Positions 1 to 40,523 of a stretch of DNA of 64,000 bases are shown here, piece by piece. Location: assembly GCF_042231735.1 (NCBI RefSeq), contig NZ_CP102577.1, positions 2,847,281 through 2,911,280 of the forward strand, in the 5' to 3' direction. Positions within the stretch are counted from its first letter, which is position 1; every line of letters begins with the position of its first letter. This stretch comes from Corallococcus exercitus (GTDB lineage Bacteria > Myxococcota > Myxococcia > Myxococcales > Myxococcaceae). Under the pieces are notes generated by a model. It worked only from the letters and a program-made list of their open reading frames with translations. It did not search any database and was not told the DNA's origin. The position numbers and the translations under genes are program-made.

Positions 1-2076
1 CTGGAGCTGCAGCGCACGGACCGCATCTTCGTCATCCTGGTGGAGTACGGCACGCAGATCCACCCGGTGTTCGGCAACCCCACCACCAACCCGGGTGGCA
101 ACATCCCGGGCCCGCTGCACAATGAAATTCCGGCCCCGGACCGGACGGTGGACAACACCACCATCTGGCAGCCGGACTACGACCGCGCGCACTTCGAGAA
201 GCTCTACTTCGACACGACGCCGGGCGCGGACTCGGTGGCGAACTTCTACAAGGCCGCGTCGTCCGGCCGCTACGCCGTGACCGGCGCGGTGTCCGAGTGG
301 GTGAAGGTGCCGTACAACGCCGCCCGCTACGGCAACAACCTGTGCGGCAGCTCCAGCTGCTCCAACTCCGTGTGGCCGCTCATCAGCGACGCCATCAAGT
401 CCTGGACGAACAGCCAGCTGGCCGCCGGCAAGACGCCCGCGGAGATCAAGGCGTACCTGGACACGTTCGACACGTGGGACCGGTATGACCACGACGGCGA
501 CGGCAACTTCGACGAGCCGGACGGCTACATCGACCACTTCCAGATCGTCCACGCGGGCATGGGCGAGGAAGTCGGCGGCGGCGCGCAGGGCCCCAACGCC
601 GTGTGGAGCCACCGCTGGTTCGCGTACAGCAACGGCTCGGGCCCGGACGGCATCGGCCCCGCGTACAACCAGAACGGCGGCACGCGCTTCGGCACCGGCA
701 TCGACAAGTGGGTGGGCGACTACACCATCCAGCCGGAGAACGGCGGACTGGGCGTGTTCGCGCACGAGTACGGCCATGACCTGGGCCTGCCGGACCACTA
801 CGACACGACGAACGCGGCGGACAACGGGACGGGCTTCTGGACCATCATGTCGTCCGGCTCGTACCTGAACGACGGCACCACGGACATCGGCAGCCGTCCG
901 GGTGACTTCTTCGCCTGGGACAAGCTGCAGCTGGGCTGGCTGGACTACGCCACCACGTCGGCGGGCCTGTACTCGTACCACAAGCTGGGCCCCGCGGAGT
1001 TCACGTCGCAGAACGCGAAGCAGGCGCTGGTGGTGAAGCTGCCCGGCAAGCCCATCGTGCAGCCCACGACCGCGCCGTTCGAGGGTCAGGGCATGTGGCA
1101 GGGCGGCCAGGGCAACAACCTGGACCGCGTGCTGGAGAAGACGGTCAAGCTGCCGAACAAGACGCCCATCACCTTCTCCTTCCAGACGTGGTTCGACATC
1201 GAGGAGGACTGGGACTACGCCTACGTCGCCATCTCCGTGGACGGTGGCCCGTTCGTCAACCTGCCCAGCCCCGTGAGCCGTGACACGAACCCCTGGGGCA
1301 ACAACCTGGGCAACGGCATCACCGGCGCGTCCAACGGCTGGATGCCGCTGTCGTTCGACCTGTCCGCCCACGCGGGCAAGAAGGTCACGCTGAAGATCCG
1401 CTACAAGACGGACGCGGCGGAGTTCGGCAAGGGCTTCCTGGTGGACTTCGTGCAGCTGTGGGCGAAGAACACCTACGTCTTCGGTGACGACGGCGAGTGG
1501 GGCCACAAGTGGTGGGACAAGTCGACGTTCTTCGTGACGGACGGCACCAACACCCTCTACGACCACTACTACCTGGCCGAGTGGCGCCAGTTCCGCGGCT
1601 ACGACGAGGGTCTGGCCACGGGCCCGTACAACTACGGCTTCAGCGCGGACGGCCTCTTCGACTGGGCGGAGCGCTACTCGTACAACCCCGGCCTGCTCGT
1701 CACCTACTGGGACACCTCCCAGCAGAACAACAACGTGTCGCAGCACCCGGGTGCGGGCCGCATCCTGCCCATCGACTCGCGCCCGCAGCCCCTGCAGCGC
1801 AGCGACGGCCGCTACTGGTCCGGCCGCGTGCAGACGCACGACGCGACGTTCGGCCTGGACCCCAGCTTCCCGCTGTCGCTCAAGCCCAACGGCTTCCCGC
1901 GCAACGAGTACCCCTCGCAGCCCGCGGTGCCGGTGTTCAACGACACGAACGAGTTCTGGTACGCCACGCAGCCGTACGCCGGCGTGAAGGTCCCGAAGAC
2001 GGGCACCATCATCGAGGTGCTGTCGACGAACAAGACCGACACCGTGATGCAGGTCCAGGTGCGCCCGGTCGAGTGA
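1..2076 (+). CDS. M6 family (immune inhibitor A-like) secreted zinc metalloprotease, 5'-partial (reading frame open from window base 1)
   Basis: Frame 1 has no stop from base 1, and the track ORF 40..2076 begins inside it. The motif FAHEYGHDLGLPDHYD matches the M6/InhA zinc-binding signature HExxHxxGxxD. The protein is about 690 aa with Gly/Asn/Trp-rich beta-rich C-terminal domains. Confidence 0.8.
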   Translation: MELQRTDRIFVILVEYGTQIHPVFGNPTTNPGGNIPGPLHNEIPAPDRTVDNTTIWQPDYDRAHFEKLYFDTTPGADSVANFYKAASSGRYAVTGAVSEWVKVPYNAARYGNNLCGSSSCSNSVWPLISDAIKSWTNSQLAAGKTPAEIKAYLDTFDTWDRYDHDGDGNFDEPDGYIDHFQIVHAGMGEEVGGGAQGPNAVWSHRWFAYSNGSGPDGIGPAYNQNGGTRFGTGIDKWVGDYTIQPENGGLGVFAHEYGHDLGLPDHYDTTNAADNGTGFWTIMSSGSYLNDGTTDIGSRPGDFFAWDKLQLGWLDYATTSAGLYSYHKLGPAEFTSQNAKQALVVKLPGKPIVQPTTAPFEGQGMWQGGQGNNLDRVLEKTVKLPNKTPITFSFQTWFDIEEDWDYAYVAISVDGGPFVNLPSPVSRDTNPWGNNLGNGITGASNGWMPLSFDLSAHAGKKVTLKIRYKTDAAEFGKGFLVDFVQLWAKNTYVFGDDGEWGHKWWDKSTFFVTDGTNTLYDHYYLAEWRQFRGYDEGLATGPYNYGFSADGLFDWAERYSYNPGLLVTYWDTSQQNNNVSQHPGAGRILPIDSRPQPLQRSDGRYWSGRVQTHDATFGLDPSFPLSLKPNGFPRNEYPSQPAVPVFNDTNEFWYATQPYAGVKVPKTGTIIEVLSTNKTDTVMQVQVRPVE

Positions 2077-2112
2077 GCGCCTGACCGTCGTCATCGCTGA
2101 GCAGTGAAGGAA

Positions 2113-2153
2113 GGCCGGTCCCGCTTCGACGCGGGGCCGGCCTTTCGCTTTCG
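2113..2153 (+). terminator. Putative intrinsic terminator downstream of the protease gene
   Basis: GC-rich inverted repeat ggccggtcccgc / gcggggccggcc with a 6-nt loop, followed by tttcgctttcg. Confidence 0.4.
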
Positions 2154-2235
2154 TGCGGACACCTGGCGCAGGCGTTGAAGGAATCCGGACACCCGGCCCA
2201 CGCCCACGGATGACGAACGCGCGCGGGGCGCTACG

Positions 2236-3213
2236 GTGCCCCCCATGGCCGAGTGCCCCGTGGGCGGTCCCGCCTCCCCTTCCCCTCCTCCCGAACCGCC
2301 CTCCGACGTCGCGCGCACCGTGGCGCTGGAGCCCGCGGATCCGCTCTCCGTCCTCAACCAGGCGTTCCGCGATGCGTACGCCGCGCGCCGGGAGGCGGTG
2401 CTGTCACGCATGGGCCCCGTCATCGCGCAGATCGACGACGTGCTCATCCTGCGCAAGGGCGGCCAGCGCTTCGAGGCCCCCGCGCGCACGCGCCGCTACC
2501 ACGAGTACAAGGCCGTCACCCACGTCCCCCTCGCGCTCCACGTCCTGCTCGCCAGCCAGCAGGACGCGCTCGATGACGACACCCGAACGCGCCTCGCCAC
2601 GCTGCGCGGCCTCATCACCGCGTCGGCCACGAGCCTGGACACCCGCGGCCTCCCGGCCGAAGCGCTGGCGCGGCAGCGCCGGATGCTCGACGCGTCGCTC
2701 GCGCTCGTGGACGCCGTGCTGGCCGCGAACCGCGTGACGCAGGCACAGCTCTCCACGTTCATCCACGCCCAGGTGCCGGACCTCATGAAGAACGCGGAGG
2801 ACTCGGCGAGGGATCAAATCGACACGATGCACGCGTCGGTCGAAGCGTGGAAACGCCAGATGACCGCCGAGGAGCGCGGCCAGCTTCGCGCGGTGGTGGC
2901 CGCCTCGCACATGTCGCGGCCCGGCAACGTGGCGGCGCAATACTTCTCCATCACCCTGGGCGACACCTGGGAGGGGCGCTTCCACGAGGAGGATCAACAG
3001 CCCGGCAAGCGCGTCCTCTCCTCGGAGGCGACGTTCGACGAGCCCGCGGCGTTCTCGCTGCTGGCCACGCACGTGCTGGACGCGCGCACGTCGCGCGGCA
3101 TCTTCGGCGAGGAGACGCGCATGGCCCGGGACCTGCTCGCGGACGCGGCCGAGCGCATCCTCGCGGACATGTTCCACACGTCGCCCCAGCCGCCCGGCAC
3201 GAGCACGCCGTAG
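2236..3213 (+). CDS. Hypothetical protein. The start is uncertain; an alternative ATG lies near 2410.
   Basis: Long ORF with codon usage typical of the surrounding genes and no family signature that I recognise. It converges on the histidine kinase gene with a 3-bp gap. Confidence 0.45.
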   Translation: MPPMAECPVGGPASPSPPPEPPSDVARTVALEPADPLSVLNQAFRDAYAARREAVLSRMGPVIAQIDDVLILRKGGQRFEAPARTRRYHEYKAVTHVPLALHVLLASQQDALDDDTRTRLATLRGLITASATSLDTRGLPAEALARQRRMLDASLALVDAVLAANRVTQAQLSTFIHAQVPDLMKNAEDSARDQIDTMHASVEAWKRQMTAEERGQLRAVVAASHMSRPGNVAAQYFSITLGDTWEGRFHEEDQQPGKRVLSSEATFDEPAAFSLLATHVLDARTSRGIFGEETRMARDLLADAAERILADMFHTSPQPPGTSTP

Positions 3214-3216
3214 CGC

Positions 3217-4908
3217 TCAGGGCCGCGTGAGCGGCAGCTCCACCTTGAACGTCGCGCCCTCGCCCAGGCGGCTGTCCACGGACACGCTCCCGCCCTCGGC
3301 CTCCACGATGGTGCGGGTGAGGTAGAGGCCCAGCCCCAGGCCTCCGTAGTGGCGCTCGGACACCGCGCGGCCGTAGCGCTCGAAGAGGCGGGGCCGCTGC
3401 TCCGGCGAGATGCCGATGCCCCCGTCGCGCACCGTGAGCCGGGCCACGGCCCCGTCCACCGCGAGCCCCACGGACACCGGCGCGCCAGGGCTGTACTTGA
3501 GCGCGTTGTCCAGCAGGTGATCCAACACCTGCGCCAGCCGGGCCCGGTCGAAGCTGCCGTGCACCGGCCCCGGCGCCTCCACGCGGAAGTCGCAGTGCTC
3601 CACGGCGAACCTGGGCGCGAACCGCGCGGCCACCTCGCGCACCACCTCCGCGACGTCCACGTCCTCGCGCTGCAGGCGGAAGGTGCCGGCGCTGATGCGC
3701 GACACGTCCAGCAGGTCGTTCATCAGCTCCGTGAGCCGGCGGACCTGGCGGTGCCCCGTCTCCACGTGCGCCTCGATGACGGGCGCGAGCGGCGAGTCCG
3801 GATGCGCCTTCACCGCGCGCGACAGCGCCTGGAGCTTCAGGCTCAGCGGCGTGAGCGGCGTCTTCAGCTCATGGCTCGCGACGGACAGGAACTCGTCGCG
3901 CAGGCGGATGGCGTCGCGCGCGCCCTGCAAGAGCCGCGCGTTGTCCACCGCGAGCGCGGCCAGGTTCGCCAGCTCCTGGGCGAACCGGAGGTCGTCGTCG
4001 CCATAGCGGCGGCCGGAGGTGGTGACCAGGAAGGTCAGCGCCCCCAGGATGTGGCCCCGCGCCAGCAGCGGCACCGTGAGCATGGAGCGCATGCCCACCG
4101 TGCGCATCATCGCCAGGTGGTCCGCGTCCTGCGCCACGGCCTTCATCAGCGCGTCCGTGACCTCCGGCACCAGCGTGGACCGGCCGGTCGCCAGCGCCAC
4201 CGAGGGAGGATAGATGGGCCGCTCCCGGGGCACCGGCGGCAGCCGCTGCACGGCGGCTGCGAGCGGCGCCAGGGACGGATCCGCCGTCGCCACCTGGACG
4301 CGCTCGAAGTGCCCATCCGCGTGCAGAATGTCCACGATGCACCAGTCCGCGAGCGCCGACACGGACAGCCTCGCCAGCGACGCGAACGTGGCGGCGGCGT
4401 CCAGCGACGACGAGAACAGCTCGCTGGCCCGCGCCAGGAACGCGGCGCGCTCCTCGCCCAGGGCCTGCGCCTGGATGTCGATGCAGGTGCCCACCCACTC
4501 GCGCACGGCGCCATCCGGCCCCAGCACCGGCATGCCCCGGACGAGCATCCACACGTAGGCGCCATCCGCGCGGCGCAGCCGGTAGCGCGTGGAGTACAGC
4601 TGGTTCCCGGCCCGGGCCTGCTCCCACGCCGCCAGCGCCCCTTCCCGGTCGTCCGGGTGCAGGGCCTGGAGCCAGCCCCGGTTGCGCAGCTGCTCCGGGG
4701 GCTGCCCGGTGAAGGCCGTCCACGAGGGGGAGATGGGCGACCGCGCGTCGCCCATGCGACTCGTCCAGGTGACGGTCGCCGCGGTCTCGAGCAACCGGCG
4801 GAGCCGTTCAGCCTCCTGGCGCAGCAGGGCCACCTCCTCCCGCAGCGCGGCCTCCGCGCCGGCGGCGGGAGCCGGGGGACCGTCTGGCTTGACGAGGGGG
4901 GACGTCAT
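3217..4908 (-). CDS. Sensor histidine kinase (PAS - GAF - HisKA - HATPase_c)
   Basis: H-box SHELKTPLT; a G1/G2 ATPase region VRDGGIGISPEQRPRLFERYGR...GGLGLGLYLTRTIVEAEGG; an N-terminal PAS-like block (PISPSWTAFTGQPPEQLRNRGWLQALHPDD...YRLRRADGAYVWM); and a central GAF-like segment. Confidence 0.85.
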   Translation of the reverse strand: MTSPLVKPDGPPAPAAGAEAALREEVALLRQEAERLRRLLETAATVTWTSRMGDARSPISPSWTAFTGQPPEQLRNRGWLQALHPDDREGALAAWEQARAGNQLYSTRYRLRRADGAYVWMLVRGMPVLGPDGAVREWVGTCIDIQAQALGEERAAFLARASELFSSSLDAAATFASLARLSVSALADWCIVDILHADGHFERVQVATADPSLAPLAAAVQRLPPVPRERPIYPPSVALATGRSTLVPEVTDALMKAVAQDADHLAMMRTVGMRSMLTVPLLARGHILGALTFLVTTSGRRYGDDDLRFAQELANLAALAVDNARLLQGARDAIRLRDEFLSVASHELKTPLTPLSLKLQALSRAVKAHPDSPLAPVIEAHVETGHRQVRRLTELMNDLLDVSRISAGTFRLQREDVDVAEVVREVAARFAPRFAVEHCDFRVEAPGPVHGSFDRARLAQVLDHLLDNALKYSPGAPVSVGLAVDGAVARLTVRDGGIGISPEQRPRLFERYGRAVSERHYGGLGLGLYLTRTIVEAEGGSVSVDSRLGEGATFKVELPLTRP

Positions 4909-4917
4909 CGGCGGGCC

Positions 4918-5934
4918 TCAGTACACGTTGTACTTGGCCCGGAGTGCCTCGTGCTCCTGCGCGTTGCGGGACGGGCGCAGGACCTTCTGCGCGTCGTGCA
5001 GGTAGTACCAGTAGTCGCTCTTCACCGGCCGCAGCGCGGCGAGCAGCGAGTCCACCGTGGGCGCGCCAATGGGGCCCGGCGGCAGGCCCGCGCGGGTGCG
5101 CGAGTTCCACGGATCCGAGTTGTCCCGCAGCCGCTTGAGGAACGCCTTGCGGTCGTTCCACTCCGCGAGCTCGTAGCGGCTGGTCGCGTCCACGCCCAGC
5201 GGGAAGCCCTTGTCCACGCGCTTCCAGAGGATGCCCGCGACGAGCGCGCGCTGGGACGGCACCGGCTCCTCGCGCTCCAGCATGGAGGCCATCACGACGA
5301 TGTCGTGCAGCGACCGGCCGCTCTTGGCGATCTCCTCCTGGTGCGCGTCGTAGAAGCGGGCGCGGAAGGTGTCGATCTGCCGCTGGATGAACGCCTCCAC
5401 CTTGAAGTTCTCCGCGACGATGCCGTACGTCTCCGGGTACAGGTACCCCTCCAGGCTGCGCGTGGGCAGCGGGAACGGCGCCGTGAAGCGGTCCGGGCGG
5501 CTGGCCGCGGCGATGTACTCGCCCGGCTTGATGAGGCCCTGGGCGGCGAGCACCTGGTCGGTGTCGCGCAGGCGCCAGCCTTCAATCATCGCGAAGGGCA
5601 CGTCCTCCGGCAGCGGCGGGCCTTCCAGCGCGGTGGCCAGCTCCGCCACGGACGCGGTGGGGCTCAGCATGAAGCGGCCGGCCTTCACGTTGAGGCTGCC
5701 CCGGCGCCACAGGTGAAAGCGCCACACCGTGGGGTCGTCCAGGAAGCCCTGGGCCTGGAGCTGCTGGCCCAGCGAGCGCGCGGACGCGCCCTTCTTCACC
5801 ACGAACTCCTTGGGCGCCGGATCCGCCGCCGCGTTGGGTGCGGTGGTGGCGTTCTGGAAGTGCATGAACACGCCGCCTGCACCCGCGACCGCCAGGACGA
5901 TGAGCACGAGGAGCGCGACCAGGATCTTCTTCAT
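4918..5934 (-). CDS. mltG: Endolytic murein transglycosylase MltG (YceG-like)
   Basis: Starts MKKILVALLVLIVLAVAG with one N-terminal TM helix, then a YceG-like domain of about 339 aa. The in-frame start was chosen at the internal ATG (complement of 5932-5934) rather than the track start at 6060. Confidence 0.8.
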   Translation of the reverse strand: MKKILVALLVLIVLAVAGAGGVFMHFQNATTAPNAAADPAPKEFVVKKGASARSLGQQLQAQGFLDDPTVWRFHLWRRGSLNVKAGRFMLSPTASVAELATALEGPPLPEDVPFAMIEGWRLRDTDQVLAAQGLIKPGEYIAAASRPDRFTAPFPLPTRSLEGYLYPETYGIVAENFKVEAFIQRQIDTFRARFYDAHQEEIAKSGRSLHDIVVMASMLEREEPVPSQRALVAGILWKRVDKGFPLGVDATSRYELAEWNDRKAFLKRLRDNSDPWNSRTRAGLPPGPIGAPTVDSLLAALRPVKSDYWYYLHDAQKVLRPSRNAQEHEALRAKYNVY

Positions 5935-6071
5935 GGGGCGCCAACCTATCAAAGGCCCTGACGCTTCCAACGAGAACCACCTGTCACGCAGCCGGGCAGG
6001 CGGACGCAAGCGCCCCCTTCTCAACACCGGCCAGCATGGACGGCCTGGCCCAGGGGCCATGAGACGGCGCC

Positions 6072-6860
6072 TCAGCTCACCGGGACGTGCAGGGACAGCT
6101 CGGCCGGCGTGAGGATTTCACAGCCGTCGCGGGTGACGAGCACGGTGTGCTCGAACTGGGCGGACAGGCTGCCGTCCGCGGTCACGATGGTCCACCCGTC
6201 CGGCATCATCCGGATGTCCGGGCGCCCCAGGTTCACCATGGGTTCAATGGTGAGGACCATCCCCGAGCGCAGCGTGATGCCGGTGCCCGCCTTCCCCACG
6301 TGCGGGACGTGCGGCTCCCCGTGCATCTGCCGGCCGATGCCGTGGCCCCCGAACTCCTCCACCACGCTGCACCCCTCCGCCTTCGCCAGCGCCATCACCG
6401 CCGCGCCGATGTCCCCCAGCCGCGCGCCGTGCCGCACCACCGACACGCCCACGTCCCGGCACCGCCGCGCCACGTCCACGACGTGCCTGGCGTCGGCGGA
6501 GACCTCGCCAATCATGAACGTGGCGGACGTGTCGCCGTGGAAGCCGTCCAGGTGCGTCGTCACGTCCACGTTGATGATGTCCCCGGGCTTGAGCACTTCA
6601 TCCGCGCGCGGGACGCCGTGGCACACCACGTGGTTGCGGCTGGTGCACACCGTGGAGGGGAAGCCCTTGTACCCAAGCTGGCTCGGGGTGCCGCCCCGCC
6701 GCGCCGTGTCCTCGCGAACCCACGCGTCGATGTCCGCCGTCGTCACGCCTGGCTGGAGCCGCGAGCCCACATGCGCCAGCGTGCCCGCCGCCGCGCGGCC
6801 CGCGAGCCGCAGCCGTTCCACTTCACTGCCCTTGAAGAGAGGGATGCCCATGCCGGGCAA
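6072..6860 (-). CDS. map: Type I methionine aminopeptidase
   Basis: Full-length match to MAP type I (pita-bread fold). Metal ligand residues are in conserved context: DIINVDVTTHLDGFHGDTSATF, HGIGRQMHGEP, LTIEPM, FEHTVLVT. Confidence 0.9.
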   Translation of the reverse strand: MPGMGIPLFKGSEVERLRLAGRAAAGTLAHVGSRLQPGVTTADIDAWVREDTARRGGTPSQLGYKGFPSTVCTSRNHVVCHGVPRADEVLKPGDIINVDVTTHLDGFHGDTSATFMIGEVSADARHVVDVARRCRDVGVSVVRHGARLGDIGAAVMALAKAEGCSVVEEFGGHGIGRQMHGEPHVPHVGKAGTGITLRSGMVLTIEPMVNLGRPDIRMMPDGWTIVTADGSLSAQFEHTVLVTRDGCEILTPAELSLHVPVS

Positions 6861-6876
6861 GGTGGCACCCGCCCTT

Positions 6877-6900
6877 CCAGAACGTCCAATGCTGTTCTGG
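6877..6900. promoter_or_regulatory. Dyad-symmetric element CCAGAAC-N10-GTTCTGG in the divergent map / LysR-fragment intergenic region (T-N11-A-like LTTR operator candidate)
   Basis: The inverted repeat ccagaac gtccaatgct gttctgg is seen directly in the sequence. It lies about 17 bp upstream of the map start and about 55 bp upstream of the HTH-only LysR ORF. Confidence 0.25.
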
Positions 6901-6952
6901 CATCACGCGGGCGCGTGCACGGCGCGCACGTCCCGCGCTAGCATCCGCGCGC

Positions 6953-7246
6953 GTGAGCATCACGCACCTCCAGTCCTTCGTCGCGGTGGCGGAAGAGGGC
7001 CACGTGGGCCGGGCCGCGCGCCGGCTGCACATCACCCAGCCGCCGCTCAGCCGTCACATCCTCGCCCTGGAGGACGAGCTGGGCACGCCCCTCTTCGAGC
7101 GCGTTCCCAAGGGCATGCGCCTGTTGCCCACCGGCGAGGCCCTGCTCCAGCACGCGCGCCGCATCCTCGCGGAGGTGGAGGTCGCCACCCGCACCGTGCG
7201 CGAGGCGGCCCGCGGCTCCGGGGACCCCAAGCCGCCTCCCGCCTGA
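6953..7246 (+). pseudogene. Truncated LysR-family regulator: only the N-terminal wHTH domain (97 aa) is present and the effector-binding domain is missing
   Basis: MSITHLQSFVAVAEEGHVGRAARRLHITQPPLSRHILALEDELGTPLFER... is the canonical LTTR HTH. The ORF stops after about 95 aa, and the helicase gene on the opposite strand ends 4 bp later, leaving no room for a substrate-binding domain. Confidence 0.4.
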
Positions 7247-7249
7247 CGG

Positions 7250-9811
7250 CTACGACCAGGCGGCCATGCCGCCAATGCGGCGCAGCATCAGGATGGGGCC
7301 GTCGTCCATGCGCCGGCCGCGCAAATCAATCTCGCAGTCGATGACCCAGTCCCCATGGCCCTCGGGGTCCATGATGCGCTGCTGGGCCTCCCACTGGCGC
7401 GTGCCCGTCTCCTTGAGCTGCGTGTTCGCCGGCTTGCGCGCCTGGGGCGTGAGCACCACCAGCTTGTGCTCCTCGAAGTACGGCGCCATGGCCTGCTCCA
7501 GCTTCGGCGCGGTCCACTCCCCCAGCGCGTTGTCCAGCATGCCCAGCGCGTCCAGGAAGCGGCGCTGGCCCAGCGCGCGCAGCAGCCGGTGCAGCTCCTC
7601 GCGCACGCGCGCGGCGAAGGCCCGGGGGTCCTCCGTGAGCTCCTTGGGCTTCAGGTCCACCACCGGCTTCACTTCGACCGGGGCCTCCGGGTTGCGCATC
7701 CGCTCCCACTCGTCCAGGAGGCTGGAGTCCACCTGCCGCAGCGTCGCGCGCAGGTGGTCGATGATGTCGTCCAGGTCCTCGTTGCGGAACTTCTCCGGTA
7801 CCGTCTGCACCAGCGACTTGTAGACGTCCCCCACGTAGCGCAGCAGCACGCCCTCGCTGCGCTGCAGGCCGTACTCACGCACGTAGTCGTGGAAGGACAT
7901 GAAGCGCTCGAACATGTCCCGGACGATGGACTTGGGCCGGATGTTCTCCTCGCCCACCCACGGGTGCTTCTTCGCGAAGGCGTTGAAGGTGCCGTAGACG
8001 AACTCGCGGTTGGGCTTGGGCCACTCCAGCTTCTCCAGCTCCTCCATGCGGTCGTCGTACTCCACGCCCCGCGCCTTCATCTCCTGGATCTTCTCTCCCT
8101 TCAGCTGGTGCAGCTGCGCGTACAGCACCACCTCCGGGTTCTCCAGGATGGACTCCACCAGCGTGACGACGTCCAGCGCGTACGTCTCCAGCGTGGGATC
8201 CAAGAGTTCCAGCGTCTCGTGCAGGTACAGGGACAGCGTGTGGTTGAGGCTGAAGTCGCGCTGCAGGTCCTCGGACACCTCCACCGTCGCGGAGTGCTTC
8301 TCCCACTGCACCACCTTCACGATGCCCGCGTCGCGCAGCGTGCGGAAGTACATCGCCGCGTCCTTGAGCAGCTTCTTCTTCGTGTAGTCGGAGCTGTGCG
8401 AGCGCATCACCAGCTGCACCAGCCGCTTGTAGCCGCCGCTGCCCTCCGTCTTGTCGCTCTGGAGCAGGTTGAGCAAGAGGCCGTGGCTCACGTCGAAGCG
8501 CGACTCCAGCGGCTCCGGCAGCCCGTTCTGGAGCCGCTCGAAGGTGCTCTTGTCGTACTGCACGAAGCCCTTCTGCGGCGGCTTCGCCTTGGGCGACTTC
8601 TTCTTGCCCGCGGCCTCCTTCGCTGCCTGGCGGATGTTTTCAATCATGTACTCCGGGGCCTGCGCCACCACGCTGCCCTCGGTGTCGAAGCCCTTGCGGC
8701 CCGCGCGGCCGGCGATCTGCTTGAAGTCGCGCACGCTCAACGTCGCCAGCTTCTCGCCGTTGAACTTGAACAGCTGCGTGAAGAGCACCGTGCGGATGGG
8801 GATGTTCACGCCCACGCCCAGCGTGTCCGTGCCGCTGATGACCTTGAGCAGGCCCTGCTGCGCCAGCTTCTCCACCAGCAGCCGGTACTTGGGCAGGAGG
8901 CCCGCGTGGTGCATGCCGATGCCGTGGCGCAGGTAGCGCTGGAAGTCCTTGCCGTAGGGCGTGTCGAAGGGGGCGTCCAGCAGCGCCTGGCGGATCTCCT
9001 CCTTCTCTTCCTTCGTGTTGAAGTCCACGGACATCAGGTTTTGCGCCTGCTCGGCCGCGGCCCGCTGCGTGAAGTTCACCAGGTACACGGGGTACTTCCC
9101 GCGCGCGATGAGGTCCTGGATGGTCTCGTGCAGCGGCACCTCGCGGTAGTCGAAGTCCAGCGGCACGGGGCGCTCGGAGCTTCGCACCGTGGCCACCTCG
9201 CGGCCGGTGAGCTTCGCCAGGCTCTGCTCGATGACGTGCGTGTCGCCCAGCGTGGCGGACATCAGCAGGAACTGCGTCCTGGGCAGCGCCAGCAGCGGAA
9301 TCTGCCAGGCCACCCCGCGCTCCTTGTCGGAGTAGTAGTGGAACTCGTCCATCACCACCGCGTCCACGCGCGCGGACGCGTCGCGCAGCGCGAGGTTGGA
9401 CAGGATCTCCGCCGTGCAGCAGAGGATGGGCGCCTCGCGGTTGATGGACGCGTCGCCCGTGAGCATGCCCACGTTCTCCGGGCCGAAGGCCTTGGAGAGC
9501 GCGAAGAACTTCTCGTTCACCAGCGCCTTGATGGGGCACGTGTAGAACGACACCTTGCCCTCGGCCATGGCCTTGAAGTGGAGCGCCATGGCGACGAGCG
9601 ACTTGCCGGAGCCGGTGGGCGTCTTGAGGAACAGGTGCTTGTCGCTCAGGAGTTCCAGGATGGCCTCCTCCTGGGCGGAGTACAGGCTCAGCCCGTTCGT
9701 GGCCACGTAGCTCACGAAGCGGTTGAGGATCTCATCGGCGTCGAGACGGGGCTCACCGGGCCTGGGCAGCAGGGCGGCGAGCGGGGCGCGGGTGTCGGCG
9801 GAGGCACTCAT
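7250..9811 (-). CDS. DEAD/DEAH-box (Ski2-like, DExH) helicase with a long C-terminal domain (DUF3516-like)
   Basis: Walker A TPTGSGKSLVA, DEFH box (VVMDEFHYY), SAT motif (LMSATLGD), and a helicase C-terminal block (LLKVISGTDTLGVGVNIPIRTVLF, QIAGRAGRKG). The protein is 853 aa. Confidence 0.75.
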   Translation of the reverse strand: MSASADTRAPLAALLPRPGEPRLDADEILNRFVSYVATNGLSLYSAQEEAILELLSDKHLFLKTPTGSGKSLVAMALHFKAMAEGKVSFYTCPIKALVNEKFFALSKAFGPENVGMLTGDASINREAPILCCTAEILSNLALRDASARVDAVVMDEFHYYSDKERGVAWQIPLLALPRTQFLLMSATLGDTHVIEQSLAKLTGREVATVRSSERPVPLDFDYREVPLHETIQDLIARGKYPVYLVNFTQRAAAEQAQNLMSVDFNTKEEKEEIRQALLDAPFDTPYGKDFQRYLRHGIGMHHAGLLPKYRLLVEKLAQQGLLKVISGTDTLGVGVNIPIRTVLFTQLFKFNGEKLATLSVRDFKQIAGRAGRKGFDTEGSVVAQAPEYMIENIRQAAKEAAGKKKSPKAKPPQKGFVQYDKSTFERLQNGLPEPLESRFDVSHGLLLNLLQSDKTEGSGGYKRLVQLVMRSHSSDYTKKKLLKDAAMYFRTLRDAGIVKVVQWEKHSATVEVSEDLQRDFSLNHTLSLYLHETLELLDPTLETYALDVVTLVESILENPEVVLYAQLHQLKGEKIQEMKARGVEYDDRMEELEKLEWPKPNREFVYGTFNAFAKKHPWVGEENIRPKSIVRDMFERFMSFHDYVREYGLQRSEGVLLRYVGDVYKSLVQTVPEKFRNEDLDDIIDHLRATLRQVDSSLLDEWERMRNPEAPVEVKPVVDLKPKELTEDPRAFAARVREELHRLLRALGQRRFLDALGMLDNALGEWTAPKLEQAMAPYFEEHKLVVLTPQARKPANTQLKETGTRQWEAQQRIMDPEGHGDWVIDCEIDLRGRRMDDGPILMLRRIGGMAAWS

Positions 9812-10005
9812 CGGCCCCCGACTCTAGGGGGTGCCGCCCGGTCCCCGGGAAAAATCACGCGTCCCACGCCCCTCCCGGTGCCCGGACAGGCTCCCTGGCT
9901 GCCCGGCCTGTGCACCCGGGCACATTGGCAACGGCTGAAGCGCGCATGGCCACGGACGGAACGCCTCCCCATCCTGCCCCCGCGACATTCACGGGGGGTT
10001 GAGAC

Positions 10006-10635
10006 ATGCGGACAGCGAAATTCTGGGTGGGGACGGTGCTGGCGGGCGCGCTGGCGCTTGGCTACGGGTGCGGGAGCAACGCGGAGAATCCCGCGCCACA
10101 GGAGGCACCGCAGCAGGGCCCGGACGCGGGGACCGACGCGGGCGTGGTGTTGACGCTCACCGACGCGCAGATCGCGCGGATCCTGCAGGTGGCCAACGAG
10201 GGCGAGGTGATGCTCGGCCAGTACGCCGCGCCGCTTGCCACCGACCCGGACATCCGGGCCTTCAACGAGGAGATGGTCACCGAGCACACCGCCGTCAAAG
10301 AACGGCTGGACGCGCTGCTCGCCACCGAGGGCATCGTCCCCGAGGACACCGCGCTGAGCCTCCAGCTGCAGATGGAAGTCCAGCAGATGATGCAGGTCCT
10401 CCAGGGGCCGAACGCGCCCACGGGCGCCGCGCTCGACCTGGCGCTCATCAGCGCCCAGCTCAACGCGCACGCGCGCACCGCCTTCATCGGCGACAGCCTG
10501 CTCACACCGCAGGTCGCCAACCCGGCCCTGGCGCAGGAGCTGGAGAGCGAACGGCAGGCGGTGCAGATGCACATTGACGAGGCGACGGACCTCCAGTCCG
10601 AGCTGGTGCTGCCGCCCGCCGTGCCCGTGCCGTAG
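10006..10635 (+). CDS. DUF4142-like secreted lipoprotein (copy 1 of a tandem pair)
   Basis: Signal peptide with lipobox LALGYGC. The conserved core is LTDAQIARILQVANEGEVMLGQYAAPLATDPDIRAFNEEMVTEHTAVKERLDALL. The DUF4142 assignment is recalled from memory, not searched. Confidence 0.55.
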   Translation: MRTAKFWVGTVLAGALALGYGCGSNAENPAPQEAPQQGPDAGTDAGVVLTLTDAQIARILQVANEGEVMLGQYAAPLATDPDIRAFNEEMVTEHTAVKERLDALLATEGIVPEDTALSLQLQMEVQQMMQVLQGPNAPTGAALDLALISAQLNAHARTAFIGDSLLTPQVANPALAQELESERQAVQMHIDEATDLQSELVLPPAVPVP

Positions 10636-33286: not shown

Positions 33287-34465
<1,179 letters not shown>

Positions 34466-34692
34466 TTATACCCAGCCCGCCCGTCCGGACGCACCCGCTT
34501 CCTGGGGGACGCCTGCCTGGCCTCCAGGAGGCCGCCCCGCCTCGGGAACCCCGGTTTCCCTACCCCACCCCCGGGGACGGGGGGCCGGAAGACGGCATTT
34601 CCGGGGCGGGCCGGCGGTTACATTGGGTCCTCCCGTCACCGATTCACCGCGCGTCTTGGGTCGCCGCGCCATTTCCGTTACAAGCCGCCGCC

Positions 34693-36291
34693 ATGTTCAA
34701 CGTCATCAACGTCTCCAAGGCCTACGGGCCCAAGAAACTTTTCGAGGAGGTCAACGTCGCCTTCTCGCCGGGCCGTCGCTACGGCCTGACCGGTCCGAAC
34801 GGGGCCGGCAAGTCCACGTTCATGAAGATCCTCGCGGGTGACGAGGAGCAGGACATGGGCGAGATCATCCGCCCCCGCAAGCTGGGCATCCTGCGCCAGG
34901 ACCACTTCCGCTACGAGAACGACCGCGTCATCGACGTGGTGCTGATGGGCAACCGCCACCTGTGGGCGGCCATGGACGAGAAGAACAAGCTCCTGGCCAA
35001 GGCCGACATCACGGAAGAGGACGGCAACCGGCTGGGTGAGCTGGAAGGCGTCATCGCGGAAGAGGACGGCTATTCGGCGGAGAGCGACGCGGCCACGCTG
35101 CTGGCGGGCCTTGGCATCGAGGAGTCCTTCCACGAAGAGCCCATGCGCCAGCTCACCGGCGGCCTGAAGCTGCGCGTGTTGCTCGCGCAGGCGCTGTTCG
35201 GCAAGCCGGAAGGCTTGCTGCTGGACGAGCCCACGAACAACCTGGACATCGACTCCATCCGCTGGCTGGAGAACTTCCTCCATGCGTACGAGGGCGTGCT
35301 GATCACCATCAGCCACGACCGGCACTTCCTGAACTCCATCTGCACGCACATCGCGGACATCGATTACGAGACCATCATCCAGTACACGGGTGGTTACGAC
35401 GACATGGTCCGGCAGAAGTCGCAGCTGCGGACCCGGGTCGAGGCCGAGACGGCGGAGAAGAAGAAGAAGATCGCCCAGCTGCAGGACTTCGTGGCGCGCT
35501 TCCACGCGGGTACGCGTGCGTCGCAGGTGCAGAGCCGCATCAAGCAGATCGACAAGCTGAAGACGGAGGACCTGAAGCGCTCGAACATCGCGCGGCCGTT
35601 CATCCGGTTCGACCAGAAGGTGGTCAGCGGCCGGCAGACGCTGATGTTCGAGGGCCTGAAGAAGTCCTTCGACGGGCAGCAGGTCATCAAGCCGTTCAAG
35701 GGGCTGGTCTGCAAGGGCGAGCGCATCTGCGTCATCGGCCGCAACGCCGTGGGCAAGTCCACGCTGGTGAAGATGCTGGCGGGGCAGCTGGAGCCGGACG
35801 CGGGCACCATCACCTGGGGCCACCAGGCGACGGTGGGCTACCTGCCGCAGGACCACCACGGCGTCATCCACAAGGGCACGACGTGCTTCGGCTATCTCCG
35901 GGAGATCAGCGAGAAGCTGACCAACGAGGAGATTTCGGGCGTGCTGGGCCGGATGCTCTTCTCGGGTGAGGAGCGGATGAAGCCCACGGACACGCTCTCC
36001 GGTGGTGAGACAGTGCGCGTGCTGTTGTCCAAGCTGATGATCATGCAGGACAACGTGCTGATCCTGGACGAGCCGACGAACCACCTGGACCTGGAGTCCA
36101 TCGCGGCGCTGGCCGAAGGCCTGTCCAAGTTCGAGGGCACGGTCATCTGCGTGACGCACGACCAGGAGCTCATCTCCGAGGTCGCGACCCGCATCTGGAG
36201 CCTGGAGGCGGGCAAGGAAGTCCTCGACTTCAACGGGCCTTACTCCGAGTTCATGGAGAAGCACGCGGACGCGGCGCAGAAGCGCCGGTAG
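34693..36291 (+). CDS. ABC-F family ATPase (EttA/Uup-like) with two ABC cassettes and no TM domain
   Basis: There are two Walker A motifs (GPNGAGKST and GRNAVGKST), two LSGGxx signatures (LTGGLKLRV and LSGGETVRV) and an inter-domain linker with the ABC-F coiled arm (KKKKIAQLQDFVARF). The start ATG is at 34693, leaving a roughly 236-nt leader. Confidence 0.85.
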   Translation: MFNVINVSKAYGPKKLFEEVNVAFSPGRRYGLTGPNGAGKSTFMKILAGDEEQDMGEIIRPRKLGILRQDHFRYENDRVIDVVLMGNRHLWAAMDEKNKLLAKADITEEDGNRLGELEGVIAEEDGYSAESDAATLLAGLGIEESFHEEPMRQLTGGLKLRVLLAQALFGKPEGLLLDEPTNNLDIDSIRWLENFLHAYEGVLITISHDRHFLNSICTHIADIDYETIIQYTGGYDDMVRQKSQLRTRVEAETAEKKKKIAQLQDFVARFHAGTRASQVQSRIKQIDKLKTEDLKRSNIARPFIRFDQKVVSGRQTLMFEGLKKSFDGQQVIKPFKGLVCKGERICVIGRNAVGKSTLVKMLAGQLEPDAGTITWGHQATVGYLPQDHHGVIHKGTTCFGYLREISEKLTNEEISGVLGRMLFSGEERMKPTDTLSGGETVRVLLSKLMIMQDNVLILDEPTNHLDLESIAALAEGLSKFEGTVICVTHDQELISEVATRIWSLEAGKEVLDFNGPYSEFMEKHADAAQKRR

Positions 36292-36318
36292 TCAGCACAG
36301 GATTAGCCAGGCAGTGCC

Positions 36319-36365
36319 AAACGCCGCCCGTTTCCGGTCCGTCCGGAAGCGAGGCGGCGTTTTCG
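36319..36365 (+). terminator. Intrinsic terminator after the ABC-F gene
   Basis: aaacgccgcc - cgtttccggtccgtccggaagcga - ggcggcgtttt. The stem GCCGCC/GGCGGC is followed by a T-tract. Confidence 0.5.
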
Positions 36366-36446
36366 TGGGCTGTCCATCCCTCTTCCGGGTGATGTCCCGG
36401 CCATGAATGGATCGACAAGACTCCGCTCGAGGCCGCCAGTCCAGGG

Positions 36447-37961
36447 TTGGCCTGGGGGTGGCTGATGGATCAGGTCATGGTGTGGGCGCCGCTGGCGTTG
36501 TTGTTCGCCGGCCTGTGGTTCCGGTCCCGCAGGCGGGTCCGTGACCTCCAGAAGCGGTTCAAACCCATCGTGGACGTTGAAGCTGAAAAGCAGCGGATCT
36601 CCGAAGAGATTGCGCACACACAGCTCGCGGCCACACTGGCGCGCGAAGCCGAGCGTCATCGAGCGGCCCAGGAAATCGCGGAGATCCGCAATGCCGCCGC
36701 GTTGGCCACTGCCGCGGAGCAGAAGCAGGTGGCCGCAGAATGTCACCGCATGCAGGAGGAGGCTTCGCGGGCAACAATAGCCGCCGCGCGGTCCGTGAAG
36801 GACGCGGAAGAGCAACGCCAGACGCTGATCAAGGAACAACAAGATCTGAAAGCCACCATCGCGCGATTGCGCGAAGAGCTTCGCCCCCTGGATGAAGAAG
36901 CGTTTCTCCTCTCCACGGGCTTCTACAAGCCGATCTATGCCTTCTCCTCTGTCGAGGAGTACGAACGCCGCCTGCAGGAGCTTCGCGAAAAGCAGAAGTC
37001 CATGTTGCAGGACAAGCGCGCTGCGACTTGTTCCATCGAGTGGGAGGTCAATGGGAGCAAGGCTGAGGGCAAGAGGCAGACGGAACGAACGCTGAAGCTG
37101 ATGCTTCGTGCGTTCAACGGCGAGGCCGACGCATGTGTCTCGAAGGTGACCTACAAGAACATCAAGACCATGGAAGCGCGCATCGAGAAAGCTGCGGATG
37201 CGATCAATGGCCTGACGAAGATCCAGAGTTGTACCATCGCGAGCCAGTATGTCGCCTTCAAGCTGGACGAACTGCGCCTTGCCCACGAGTACGCTGAGCG
37301 GATCCAACAGGAGCGCGACGAGCAGAAGCGCATTCGCGAGCAGATGCGCGAGGAAGAGGCGGCGCAGCGGGAGTTGGAGAAGGCGAAGCTGGAAGCAGAG
37401 CGCGAGGCGAAGCGAGACGCCGAGTCCTTGGCGAAGGCGAAAGCGGACTACGAGAAGGCCAAGGGCTCCGAACAGCAGAAGCTTCTGGAACGCATCGCGG
37501 AACTGGAGCGCCGCGTCGCCGAGGATCTGGAGAAGCAGCGAGCCATCTCCCAGGCCCAGCTCACACGGACGGGGCACGTCTATGTCATCTCAAACATCGG
37601 CTCGTTCGGAGAAGGCATTTTCAAGCTGGGGATGACCCGAAGGCTGGTGCCCCAGGACCGCATCGACGAACTGGGAGACGCCTCGGTGCCATTCGAGTTC
37701 GACGTCCACGCCATCATCCGGACCTCGGATGCGCCAGCGCTGGAGAGTGCCCTGCACCGAACCTTCGCGAACCGGCGCGTTAATCGCATCAACGAGCGCA
37801 AGGAGTTCTTCCGCGTCAGCCTGGAGGAAATCGCTGAGGCCGTGCGAAAACACCATGGTGAGTTTGAATTAACCTGGATTGCCGAAGCTGCGGAGTACCG
37901 GAAGTCACTGGCGCTACGGGAAGACGACAATAGCACCCAGTCACAACAAACCGCAGCGTGA
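36447..37961 (+). CDS. DUF4041-type protein with an N-terminal TM helix, about 330 aa of coiled coil, and a C-terminal T5orf172 / GIY-YIG-like (MUG113) domain. It sits in a low-GC islet.
   Basis: TM is VMVWAPLALLFAGLWF. A long E/K/R/A/Q-rich heptad-like region follows. The DUF4041-like core is STGFYKPIYAFSSVEEYERRLQELREKQK...KLMLRAFNGEADACVSKVTYKNIKTMEARIEKAADAINGL. The C-terminus is TGHVYVISNIGSFGEGIFKLGMTRRLVPQDRIDELGDASVPFEFDVHAIIRTSDAPALESALHRTFANRRVNRINERKEFFRVSLEEI, typical of T5orf172. Domain names are from memory. GC is clearly below the host level. Confidence 0.65.
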   Translation: MAWGWLMDQVMVWAPLALLFAGLWFRSRRRVRDLQKRFKPIVDVEAEKQRISEEIAHTQLAATLAREAERHRAAQEIAEIRNAAALATAAEQKQVAAECHRMQEEASRATIAAARSVKDAEEQRQTLIKEQQDLKATIARLREELRPLDEEAFLLSTGFYKPIYAFSSVEEYERRLQELREKQKSMLQDKRAATCSIEWEVNGSKAEGKRQTERTLKLMLRAFNGEADACVSKVTYKNIKTMEARIEKAADAINGLTKIQSCTIASQYVAFKLDELRLAHEYAERIQQERDEQKRIREQMREEEAAQRELEKAKLEAEREAKRDAESLAKAKADYEKAKGSEQQKLLERIAELERRVAEDLEKQRAISQAQLTRTGHVYVISNIGSFGEGIFKLGMTRRLVPQDRIDELGDASVPFEFDVHAIIRTSDAPALESALHRTFANRRVNRINERKEFFRVSLEEIAEAVRKHHGEFELTWIAEAAEYRKSLALREDDNSTQSQQTAA

Positions 37962-38001
37962 GACACGAATCACCTAACAGCGATCAGCTTCCTCTGCGAC
38001 A

Positions 38002-38838
38002 ATGACACAGGCTCTTCCAACACCCGATGACGTCCCTCCTCCAGGCGTTATGAGATGGCTCATCTCCTGCGACGAATCCGGAACAGGCGGCTCGCCCTTC
38101 TACGGCTTCGGAACACTCTGGATGAACTGGCAAAGGCGTGGAAACTTCTCCGAACTCATCCAGGATCTTCGAGAGAAACATAAGTACGAATTTGAAATCA
38201 AATGGAACAAAGTCTCCGGCAGGAATTTGCCATTTTATCGAGACTTGGTGGAAGCCTTCTTCAAGACCAGCTGGATGCACTTTCACTGCATAGTCGTGAA
38301 ACAGGCAGACGTGCGTTTAGATTTCCACGATCGAGACTGGGATCTTGCGCGCCGAAAGCACTTCACCATGCTCCTGACCAACAAGATCAGGCGCTGCCTC
38401 ACCAAGAATCCCAATCGAGATTTGACGTTTCGAATATGGGTTGACCCCATTGCCTCACGCTACAAAAAGGCCAATGAAGCGGTGGAGATTATCGCCAACA
38501 ACGCACTCCAACAGGTTTTCAAGCGACTCCGCCCCGTCGACAAGGTCATTACTCGCGATTCGCGCGACACTCCAAGCATTCAGCTTTGCGATCTCCTCCT
38601 CGGCGCGGTGATGGAAGGTTGGCAGCGAAAGTCCGACTCCGAGTCCAAGCAGGAGCTGCGCGAATGGATTGCTGAACACCTTGGTTGGGACGACTTGGCG
38701 AACGACACACACAGAGACGAAACGAAGTTCAACATCTGGTATTTTCACGATCCGATATCAAAACCCAAGCGATCCGCCCTCACGCGTCCCGTCAAATTGA
38801 GATACCCACTGCCAACCGGCAAACGGCGTCGTTCGTAG
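38002..38838 (+). CDS. DUF3800 family protein, in the low-GC islet directly downstream of the DUF4041/T5orf172 gene
   Basis: The N-terminal MRWLISCDESGTGGSPFYGFG (DESG hallmark) and the distal SIQLCDLLLGAVMEG (QLxDL motif) match my recollection of DUF3800. About 50% GC by eye, with AT-rich codons (aaa, gaa, ttt) that are rare in the flanking genes. Confidence 0.6.
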   Translation: MTQALPTPDDVPPPGVMRWLISCDESGTGGSPFYGFGTLWMNWQRRGNFSELIQDLREKHKYEFEIKWNKVSGRNLPFYRDLVEAFFKTSWMHFHCIVVKQADVRLDFHDRDWDLARRKHFTMLLTNKIRRCLTKNPNRDLTFRIWVDPIASRYKKANEAVEIIANNALQQVFKRLRPVDKVITRDSRDTPSIQLCDLLLGAVMEGWQRKSDSESKQELREWIAEHLGWDDLANDTHRDETKFNIWYFHDPISKPKRSALTRPVKLRYPLPTGKRRRS

Positions 38839-39074
38839 CACTCAATTCACGAGGGCCGACGAACCGGAGCCTTGAGTGAAGCGAATAGTGTAGCGCGTTT
38901 AGGGCCATCATCCTTCGTCGCGTCTTTGGACTCCTACTGGCACTGCTCCCCTTCCCGATTGGTGCTGCCCTCGTACCAGCTTTGCCCTAGCTCCACATCC
39001 AGGCAACGTGGTGTGTATGGACAACCGTTCTTAATGGCGAGGGAAACGGGCGTGAGTGGGTATGATGCAGGGCC

Positions 39075-40523
39075 ATGTATCCGAGACGCCGTCTTCTGGC
39101 CCGTGGACCGTGGTTGTTCGATCTCAGACCGCAGCGGCTCATCGTCTTCCACGGAGCCGAAGGCGTGCGCCGGGAGGTCAGTGGCGACGTGCCGGATCAT
39201 CCGTCCGCGCCCGTGGAGCTCGCCGCGCTCAACGAGGCACAGGACGTCTGGGTGGGATGCGGGGATCGGCGTGTCTTCTCCGTGGGGGCCGGCGCGGGCG
39301 CTCCCGTCCAGGCCTTTCCGAGGGAGTGCTTCGATCTCACCTCCGATGGGGACCGACTCATCGGAACGGTGGTGGACGGCGCCCGCAAGCTCACCACCCT
39401 CTTCACGACCGATGGGTCCGGGCAGCAAAGGGCGCCCATGACCTTGCCCAAGCCCGTGCGCGCCTCGCACGGGTATGGGTATTCCGAGGGGCGCCCCCAG
39501 CGTCAGTCCCCTGATGGGGCGTTCCTCGACACGAGCCCCTTTGGCATCACCGTCGTGGAGAAGGGCCGGGGCCGCGTCTACGTGCTCCGCGCGGGGGCGG
39601 CTCAGCCGGAGGGCGCGCTCCAGGTGGAGCCGGGCGGTGAGGAGGACATCTGGCGGGCCCAGGCCACTCCCCAGGGCGTGCTTCTCCTGCTCGTCATCAA
39701 CTACCGGCAGACGGCGCTCCTCCACTTCGCGCTCGATGGCACCCTGCTCGGCTCCATCCCGGCGATCGATGATGAGGATGACGATGCGGAAGAACTGATC
39801 TGGGGCGGTGCCGGGGTGTGCGTCCTCGACGCGGACCGGGCGCTCCTCTTCGTCCAGGACAAGACCCTCCTGGTGTCCCTGCCCGAGCTCCAGGTGTTGG
39901 AGACGGTCGTGGGGGAGTGGCCTGCCTTCGTGTCCGTGACGCCCGCGGGGCCTGACCGGTGGTGGGTGGGCGCCGAGGACAGGGACTCGCTCTTCCTGCT
40001 CACCGCCGAGCCCGGACACCCCTTGCGCCTCCACGCCTCAAACCGTCCGGTGATCCCGGGCGCTCCGCTCATGCACGTGGGCTACAAGACGCCCGCGATC
40101 CACTGGGCCGAGCACACCTCGGCGCCGCTCACCGTTTCCGCGCCCGTGACCGAGACGTGGCGCGCGGTGGTGCGAAATGACGGGACCGCGTGTGAGGCCG
40201 TGCGGATCCGGGTGTCCGGGGCGCTCGTCGGCGCTCGCGTGGTGGATGTGAGCGTGCGGTATCGCGGCCAGCCGCTCCCGATGGTGGAGGAGCAGCGCGT
40301 GAACGTCGTGGGCATTACCGCTGGACTGGAGGCAGGGGCCACCGCGGAGCTGGAGGTAACCTTCAAGCCCCGGAGCGAGGGCTCGGGACCGCTGACCATC
40401 ACCGTCGAGCCGTGCTCCTGGCAGGCGCAGGCCAAAGAATGGCAATGGGACAAAGAGCAGCCTCGCGTCCTCGTGATGACGGGCCATACGGCAAGCGCCC
40501 AGTTCCCGCTCACGGTGGAGTAG
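39075..40523 (+). CDS. Hypothetical protein (482 aa), convergent with and overlapping the pseudokinase gene by 14 bp
   Basis: Long ORF with host-like codon usage and no family that I recognise. Confidence 0.45.
   Translation: MYPRRRLLARGPWLFDLRPQRLIVFHGAEGVRREVSGDVPDHPSAPVELAALNEAQDVWVGCGDRRVFSVGAGAGAPVQAFPRECFDLTSDGDRLIGTVVDGARKLTTLFTTDGSGQQRAPMTLPKPVRASHGYGYSEGRPQRQSPDGAFLDTSPFGITVVEKGRGRVYVLRAGAAQPEGALQVEPGGEEDIWRAQATPQGVLLLLVINYRQTALLHFALDGTLLGSIPAIDDEDDDAEELIWGGAGVCVLDADRALLFVQDKTLLVSLPELQVLETVVGEWPAFVSVTPAGPDRWWVGAEDRDSLFLLTAEPGHPLRLHASNRPVIPGAPLMHVGYKTPAIHWAEHTSAPLTVSAPVTETWRAVVRNDGTACEAVRIRVSGALVGARVVDVSVRYRGQPLPMVEEQRVNVVGITAGLEAGATAELEVTFKPRSEGSGPLTITVEPCSWQAQAKEWQWDKEQPRVLVMTGHTASAQFPLTVE

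Follow-up and report, generated by a model that had tools for sequence, protein, structure and literature searches.

The gene at positions 36465-37961 on the plus strand of the window (the whole 64,000-nucleotide stretch of Corallococcus exercitus DNA analysed here, with a G+C content of ~70%) belongs, judging from its sequence, to the SNIPE (PD-lambda-1) family, of which it is an ordinary and intact representative. By analogy with the E. coli protein, we consider it probable, at roughly 80%, that it is a functional SNIPE providing single-gene, direct (non-abortive) anti-phage defence. PD-lambda-1 was discovered through a functional selection in E. coli ECOR26 (RCP76574.1, 500 aa; Vassallo et al. 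2022) and was renamed SNIPE by Saxton et al. (Nature 2026; PMC13190303), in whose work the E. coli protein cleaves lambda DNA directly during injection. The system type, the mechanism and the family name are hence already published, and standard defence finders would detect the gene.

In the ORF list, a single long open reading frame on the plus strand extends from a TTG at 36447 to the stop codon at 37961. The preliminary description gave its translation correctly and took the TTG as the start. The most likely start is instead the in-frame ATG at 36465, 18 nt downstream, because GGGGGTGG lies 4-11 nt 5' of it and the N-termini of the homologues align at this very position. The product would then have 498 aa, and is 100% identical to the 498-aa NCBI product of C. 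exercitus (P0001), named "DUF4041 domain-containing protein". Residue numbers below refer to the 498-aa form; the numbering of the preliminary description, counted from the TTG, is higher by 6. The reading frame is uninterrupted, and a search for tandem repeats within the DNA of the gene gave none of relevance. The features of the gene and of its surroundings are the following:

36465..37961, plus strand: SNIPE / PD-lambda-1 homologue gene, 498 aa plus stop
36474..36521, plus strand: predicted transmembrane (TM) anchor VMVWAPLALLFAGLWF, residues 4-19 (hydropathy, homologues, AF2)
36522..36545, plus strand: basic cluster RSRRRVRD directly after the TM (sequence; R/K-rich flanks in homologues)
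36573..36914, plus strand: N-terminal arm (N-arm), one 114-residue helix, residues 37-150 (AF2), the most divergent part and variable in length
Residues 151-162, plus strand: loop (AF2)
36915..37241, plus strand: DUF4041 (SNIPE) globular alpha/beta domain, residues 151-259 (Pfam, AF2)
37242..37562, plus strand: downstream long helix, residues 260-366, made of helices 260-331 and 335-366 (AF2)
37563..37874, plus strand: GIY-YIG-type (T5orf172/MUG113) nuclease domain, residues 367-470 (Pfam, AF2)
37581-37583, 37623-37625 and 37659-37661, plus strand: nuclease key residues Y373, K387 and R399
37743-37745 and 37782-37784, plus strand: nuclease key residues E427 (equivalent to SNIPE E414) and N440
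37875..37958, plus strand: C-terminal helix and low-confidence tail, residues 471-498 (AF2 helix 476-497, pLDDT 56-75)
38002-38838, plus strand: DUF3800 gene, 278 aa, 40 nt downstream (Pfam 4.4e-11; PADLOC candidate PDC-M04A, 1.5e-36)
36292-39074: variable-cargo site downstream of the ABC-F gene, corresponding to 614-10259 of locus L004 (C. coralloides) and 4987-8400 of locus L008 (Corallococcus sp. ZKHCc1 1396)

Two PADLOC models of PD-Lambda-1 matched the protein, PDLC03976 (E 1.6e-153) and PDLC03977 (E 1.8e-150), and the match is nearly full-length, with query residues 32-501 covering model positions 28-483 of 491. The only other PADLOC matches were PDC-S57, through the nuclease domain, and a weak LmuB hit through the coiled coil. 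Using Pfam, we found both domains whose alignment the preliminary description had called for: DUF4041 (PF13250) at 217-272, which is 211-266 in the 498-aa form (1.1e-21, 76.9 bits against a cut-off of 27), and T5orf172 (PF10544) at 376-468 (4.5e-18). MUG113 (PF13455) matched as well (2.1e-17), and all three scores exceed the curated gathering cut-offs. NCBIfam gave zero matches for the SNIPE homologue or its neighbours. PF13250 is now named "SNIPE" in newer Pfam annotations, and the corresponding RefSeq name is "SNIPE associated domain-containing protein".

For a direct comparison with the E. coli system we used an allele located in a lambdoid prophage, with which the window protein shares 46% identity over 400 aa (BLASTP, E 2e-114). 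This allele is frameshifted into a 78-aa ORF containing the TM and a 432-aa ORF. The latter, read at an offset of +68, reproduces all six residues named in the published work (E414, E223, W257, N250, I308 and T319), and thus has the numbering of SNIPE. The split allele occupies positions 1934-3435 of locus L003, on the chromosome of E. coli AF22, between ybcN/ninE and the gene for replication protein P, and its 432-aa ORF, which lacks the TM, carries the same "SNIPE associated domain-containing protein" name in RefSeq. It is presumably silent or inactive, since expression of a SNIPE that lacks the TM has been reported to be toxic (PMC13190303).

The window protein resembles E. coli SNIPE in size (498 versus 500 aa), in the order of its parts (TM, long helix, DUF4041, long helix and GIY-YIG/T5orf172 domain) and in residues E427 and E237, the equivalents of E414 and E223. 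The offset of its Pfam domains relative to E. coli SNIPE is constant, at +19 to +20 in the numbering of the preliminary description. In contrast, the TM and N-arm sequences of the two proteins are unrelated, with 8% identity in the N-arm against 45% in the DUF4041 core, and the window gene lies in a myxobacterial chromosomal islet instead of a lambdoid prophage. Among Myxococcaceae, the identity to the window protein is 31-44% in the TM, 42-65% in the N-arm, 72-77% in DUF4041, 74-86% in the second helix and 89-95% in the nuclease. This order (nuclease > helix > DUF4041 > N-arm) is in agreement with the gradient published for the family (PMC13190303).

Regarding the membrane anchor, the preliminary description had reported a single N-terminal hydrophobic helix followed by RSRRRVRD, and we recovered both. 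VMVWAPLALLFAGLWF is the only strongly hydrophobic stretch of the protein, with a 19-residue Kyte-Doolittle mean of 1.45-1.51 (the best value elsewhere is 0.94). It is short (16 residues) and falls slightly below the classic threshold of 1.6 for a window of 19 residues. In the AF2 model, residues 4-31 form one helix. We extended the hydropathy comparison to homologues with a length of 430 aa or more: among the matches listed, 112 of 116 have a window with a value of at least 1.6 within their first 90 residues, followed by R/K. Going by the positive-inside rule, most of the protein would be cytoplasmic, with a predicted N-out/C-in topology. E. coli SNIPE has its TM at the equivalent place, as seen with PhoA/LacZ fusions; it is a single-pass inner-membrane anchor with the N-terminus in the periplasm, and one TM is found in 59% of the homologues of the family (PMC13190303). 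By homology, the window protein is likely to reside in the membrane too.

The AF2 model, built with 87 sequences (mean pLDDT 83.9, pTM 0.56), places the parts in the order published for SNIPE, that is, TM, helix, DUF4041, helix and GIY-YIG domain. The coiled coil of about 330 aa that had been proposed for residues 40-370 was not borne out, as the model shows one helix at 37-150, a globular region at 151-259 and further helices at 260-331 and 335-366. With a globular domain of 109 aa interrupting the span, the architecture is that of two long helices flanking a folded DUF4041, and not of a DUF4041 block embedded in a coiled coil, as had been suggested. The compact region (163-259) contains helices 163-182, 199-226 and 233-250 together with short strands, with pLDDT values mostly between 93 and 98. 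The heptad character attributed to the long segment could not be demonstrated from the window sequence alone, for which neither heptad a/d scoring nor Fourier analysis did better than shuffles. The family-mean hydrophobic spectrum, by comparison, peaks at 3.60 residues in the N-arm and at 3.57 in the second helix, with 3 to 5 times the shuffled power. These long helices fit an amphipathic nature and packing with a mixed heptad/hendecad register, rather than a plain heptad coiled coil. Their content in E, K, R, Q, A or D is 67-76% (74% in the second helix, which is E/K/R-rich), and they may on this account behave partly as single alpha-helices.

A sequence-profile search of the PDB gave no solved relative, its sole match being a weak one, for the N-arm, to ATP synthase subunit b (E 0.062). 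This protein has a similar N-terminal TM followed by a long charged helix, and its stalk has hendecad character, which may be compared with the 7- and 11-residue quanta in the length of the N-arm. As the match is not significant, the likeness would be an analogy of form only. ATP synthase subunit b has also been reported among the HHblits matches that SNIPE's N-terminal regions gave (PMC13190303). A Foldseek comparison of the entire model with the PDB yielded long-helix matches only (axonemal proteins and plectin), none of them with an E value of 0.001 or lower.

The C-terminal region of the model (residues 370-465) is a beta-beta-alpha-beta-alpha domain, which is the fold of the GIY-YIG superfamily. 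All the motifs that the preliminary description had pointed out (VYVISN, FKLGMT, DRIDEL and PFEFD) occur in the protein, and the 87 homologues show no variation at most of the positions that they cover. The invariant residues of the domain are Y373, K387, G389, M390, T391, R392, R393, R399, E402, D405, H415, E427, H431, N440, N443 and E447. Y373 lies on strand 1 and R399 on helix 1, and N440 comes 13 residues after E427. We take the spacing of Y373, R399, E427 and N440 to be the canonical one of GIY-YIG enzymes, going by the numbering of UvrC and I-TevI rather than by a residue-level superposition. The four residues, the putative catalytic Tyr, Arg, Glu and Asn, are intact, and we saw at them no substitution of the kind that was to indicate a role in DNA binding only. 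Classical GIY-YIG nucleases (SLX1, the N-terminal domain of UvrC, the catalytic domain of I-TevI and R.Eco29kI) have Y-I-G as their second motif, whereas here this motif is [Y/F]-K-[IVL]-G-M-T, and the protein belongs to the T5orf172/MUG113 branch, fused to a membrane anchor. The aromatic residue of this motif is Phe in the window protein; it is Tyr in 46 and Phe in 41 of the 87 homologues, and the Lys that follows is invariant. Phe is thus common in the family and does not represent an inactivating change. The catalytic Glu, E427 (E433 when counted from the TTG), lies in the motif DAPALESALH and aligns with E414 of SNIPE, whose replacement by Ala (E414A) abolishes defence in E. coli (PMC13190303). 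By homology, the window protein would have nuclease activity. Taken together, these analyses establish the family membership, the domain order, the fold and the integrity of the catalytic and invariant residues.

By analogy with E. coli SNIPE, the N-terminal helix would serve as an inner-membrane anchor that leaves only ~3 residues outside, and the N-arm, DUF4041, the fixed-length second helix and the nuclease would all be cytoplasmic. The membrane tether would keep this constitutively anchored nuclease away from the chromosome. At the time of phage genome injection (by siphoviruses in E. coli), DUF4041 would engage both the incoming DNA and the tape-measure/injection complex, after which the nuclease would cut that DNA at the entry site. 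In E. coli, the binding of DNA is promoted by the cytoplasmic DUF4041, to which tape measure proteins probably bind as well, and the N-terminal region mediates association with ManYZ (PMC13190303). The N-terminal region of the window protein being unrelated, neither the ManYZ partner nor the phage range can be transferred to it. The preliminary description had proposed a membrane-tethered nuclease acting on DNA near the membrane, for instance as the phage genome enters. This interpretation is supported, both by the experiments on E. coli SNIPE (PMC13190303) and by the full-length homology and intact catalytic Glu of the window protein, and it is at the same time already known, the mechanism having been published. 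The defence phenotype, the phages and the host partners that the protein would have in the myxobacterium are likewise suggested by homology. Zorya and Kiwa likewise operate at the inner membrane, during genome injection or close to that moment (PMC13190303), but they are multi-protein systems of unrelated components, and PADLOC revealed no sequence relationship between them and the window protein.

The preliminary description had also likened the coiled coil to a ruler. This idea can be kept, at most, for the N-arm, the sole part of variable length, and not for the remainder. In alignment A1, which comprises 87 homologues, the segment delimited by GFYKP and AHEY (residues 152-271), which holds DUF4041, is exactly 120 aa long in 87/87, and the second helix measures 98-99 aa in 87/87, while N-arm lengths lie between 57 and 177 aa. 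The distance between the invariant residues E41 and L142 (window 36585-36890) varies from 32 to 152 residues, and takes mostly the values 32, 39, 43, 50, 54, 61, 68, 72, 83 and 90 in the lower part of the series and 94, 101, 108, 112, 123, 134, 141 and 152 in the upper part, with steps mostly of 4, 7 or 11 residues. Gap runs in the alignment are mostly of 11, 15, 18, 22 or 29 residues, lengths that arise by combining 7 and 11. Such indel quanta make helix packing plausible, though not as a single heptad coiled coil. We also considered an obligatory antiparallel hairpin of the two long helices. The lengths of the N-arm and the second helix do not covary among the 87 homologues (r = -0.27, the second helix being constant), so that pairing along their full length is unnecessary and the hairpin is ruled out as a requirement. 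Published work on SNIPE mentions variable N-terminal lengths without this quantisation (PMC13190303), and the contrast between an N-arm quantised in 7 and 11 residues and fixed downstream modules is the one mildly new observation made here. Given that length changes only in the arm, and nearly always in steps that preserve the register, the arm may be under selection as a spacer. We tentatively raise the idea, speculative as it is, of a tunable spacer whose length and sequence are matched to the geometry of phage injection machines or to a partner. If this were true, the entry apparatus recognised by the myxobacterial protein (a host channel or phage ejection proteins) would differ from the ManYZ/tape-measure pair of E. 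coli.

One could argue, in a similar vein, that the protein sits at the membrane as a SNIPE does and is triggered or recruited otherwise than that of E. coli, through another host channel, through ejection proteins of phages other than siphoviruses or by other incoming DNA. Hardly any identity links its TM and N-arm to the E. coli allele, and the N-arm is divergent even within Myxococcaceae. Besides, the equivalent of W257 is R271 (window 37275-37277), at a position that is highly variable in the family (Y in 23, R in 19, H in 17 and F in 12 of the 87 homologues, and also L). The W257R change in E. coli SNIPE gave better defence against phage Bas14 (PMC13190303), and R271 is this same state, found naturally. 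Against this alternative, such variation falls inside the published model and does not amount to another mechanism, and the DUF4041 core keeps its fixed length and its 45% identity to that of E. coli. As for other incoming DNA, E. coli SNIPE does not block plasmid transformation (PMC13190303). We regard a different mode of recruitment as unlikely.

A functional SNIPE acting directly on phage DNA also has to be weighed against an abortive-infection toxin, in which the nuclease would be released or activated upon infection and would degrade the host DNA, killing the cell. Once deprived of its TM, E. coli SNIPE is toxic and cleaves the DNA of its host (PMC13190303), so its nuclease is not intrinsically phage-specific. 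The full-length protein, however, is a direct defence in which injected phage DNA is cleaved and cells survive, even at high multiplicity of infection (PMC13190303), and it is this architecture that the window protein shares, which makes a toxin highly improbable.

The genomic context agrees with a defence function. GC3 is 0.77 for the SNIPE homologue and 0.64, the lowest of the region, for the DUF3800 gene that follows, against 0.92-0.97 for the flanking genes. Upstream lie tgt and the gene for an ABC-F ATPase; downstream lie genes for a conserved 482-aa protein, a Ser/Thr kinase and a beta-lactamase-family protein. At the same site, C. coralloides carries an Hhe-type DUF4011 helicase, a SNIPE homologue and a SIR2 (SIR2_2) protein, flanked by the ABC-F gene, a gene for a 446-aa protein (86% identical) and a kinase gene. 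The presence of other defence genes there (Hhe helicase and SIR2), together with the low GC3 of the window gene, favours the defence reading. In Corallococcus sp. ZKHCc1 1396, the site contains DUF6210, a DUF4011 remnant, SNIPE and an unrelated 265-aa protein, and in Myxococcus xanthus and Pyxidicoccus the SNIPE homologue stands alone beside a serine dehydratase gene. The gene might also be taken for a T5orf172 homing endonuclease of selfish or phage type, or for a DNA-binding remnant that has lost catalysis, with no role in defence, but we consider this highly improbable: T5orf172 domains are common in phage genes resembling homing endonucleases and the gene is compositionally foreign, but the match extends beyond the nuclease domain to the entire three-part SNIPE architecture, every invariant nuclease position is intact in an uninterrupted ORF and no phage genes are adjacent.

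With neighbours that differ across relatives, SNIPE appears as a stand-alone gene in a variable-cargo spot. We rejected DUF3800 as a conserved partner of SNIPE, given that the downstream gene differs in the three Corallococcus genomes and that the Myxococcus/Pyxidicoccus homologue is alone. Not being a conserved neighbour, the DUF3800 gene is probably a separate candidate defence gene of the same islet. We found no tRNA or integrase at the islet, and scans of 35.8-39.6 kb revealed no flanking direct repeats and no promoter-like sites; terminator-like sites in the same interval showed no excess (2 found, 3.0 expected from shuffles). In its behaviour, the site downstream of the ABC-F gene resembles a defence hotspot, albeit one that lacks any evident integrase, tRNA or flanking repeats.

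Two observations concern the genes at its borders. The ABC-F ATPase ORF (34456-36291, plus strand) encodes 611 aa from a TTG, compared with 532 aa in the orthologues of related genomes, and 508/532 of its residues are identical to the orthologue in ZKHCc1 1396 (L008); its true start is probably ~79 codons further downstream. The gene for the 482-aa protein (39075-40523, plus strand), the relative of the 446-aa protein of C. coralloides, borders the islet on the other side, and its product had no Pfam, PADLOC or NCBIfam match.

According to these results, the appropriate label for the gene is SNIPE/PD-lambda-1 homologue, instead of "DUF4041 domain-containing protein", and a reader with the sequence alone could infer the published mechanism. 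The natural Arg at the W257 position offers a myxobacterial representative for studies of how SNIPE specificity evolves. Finally, the SNIPE gene is the marker of a small defence islet that was acquired horizontally and lies in a spot of variable cargo on Corallococcus chromosomes.
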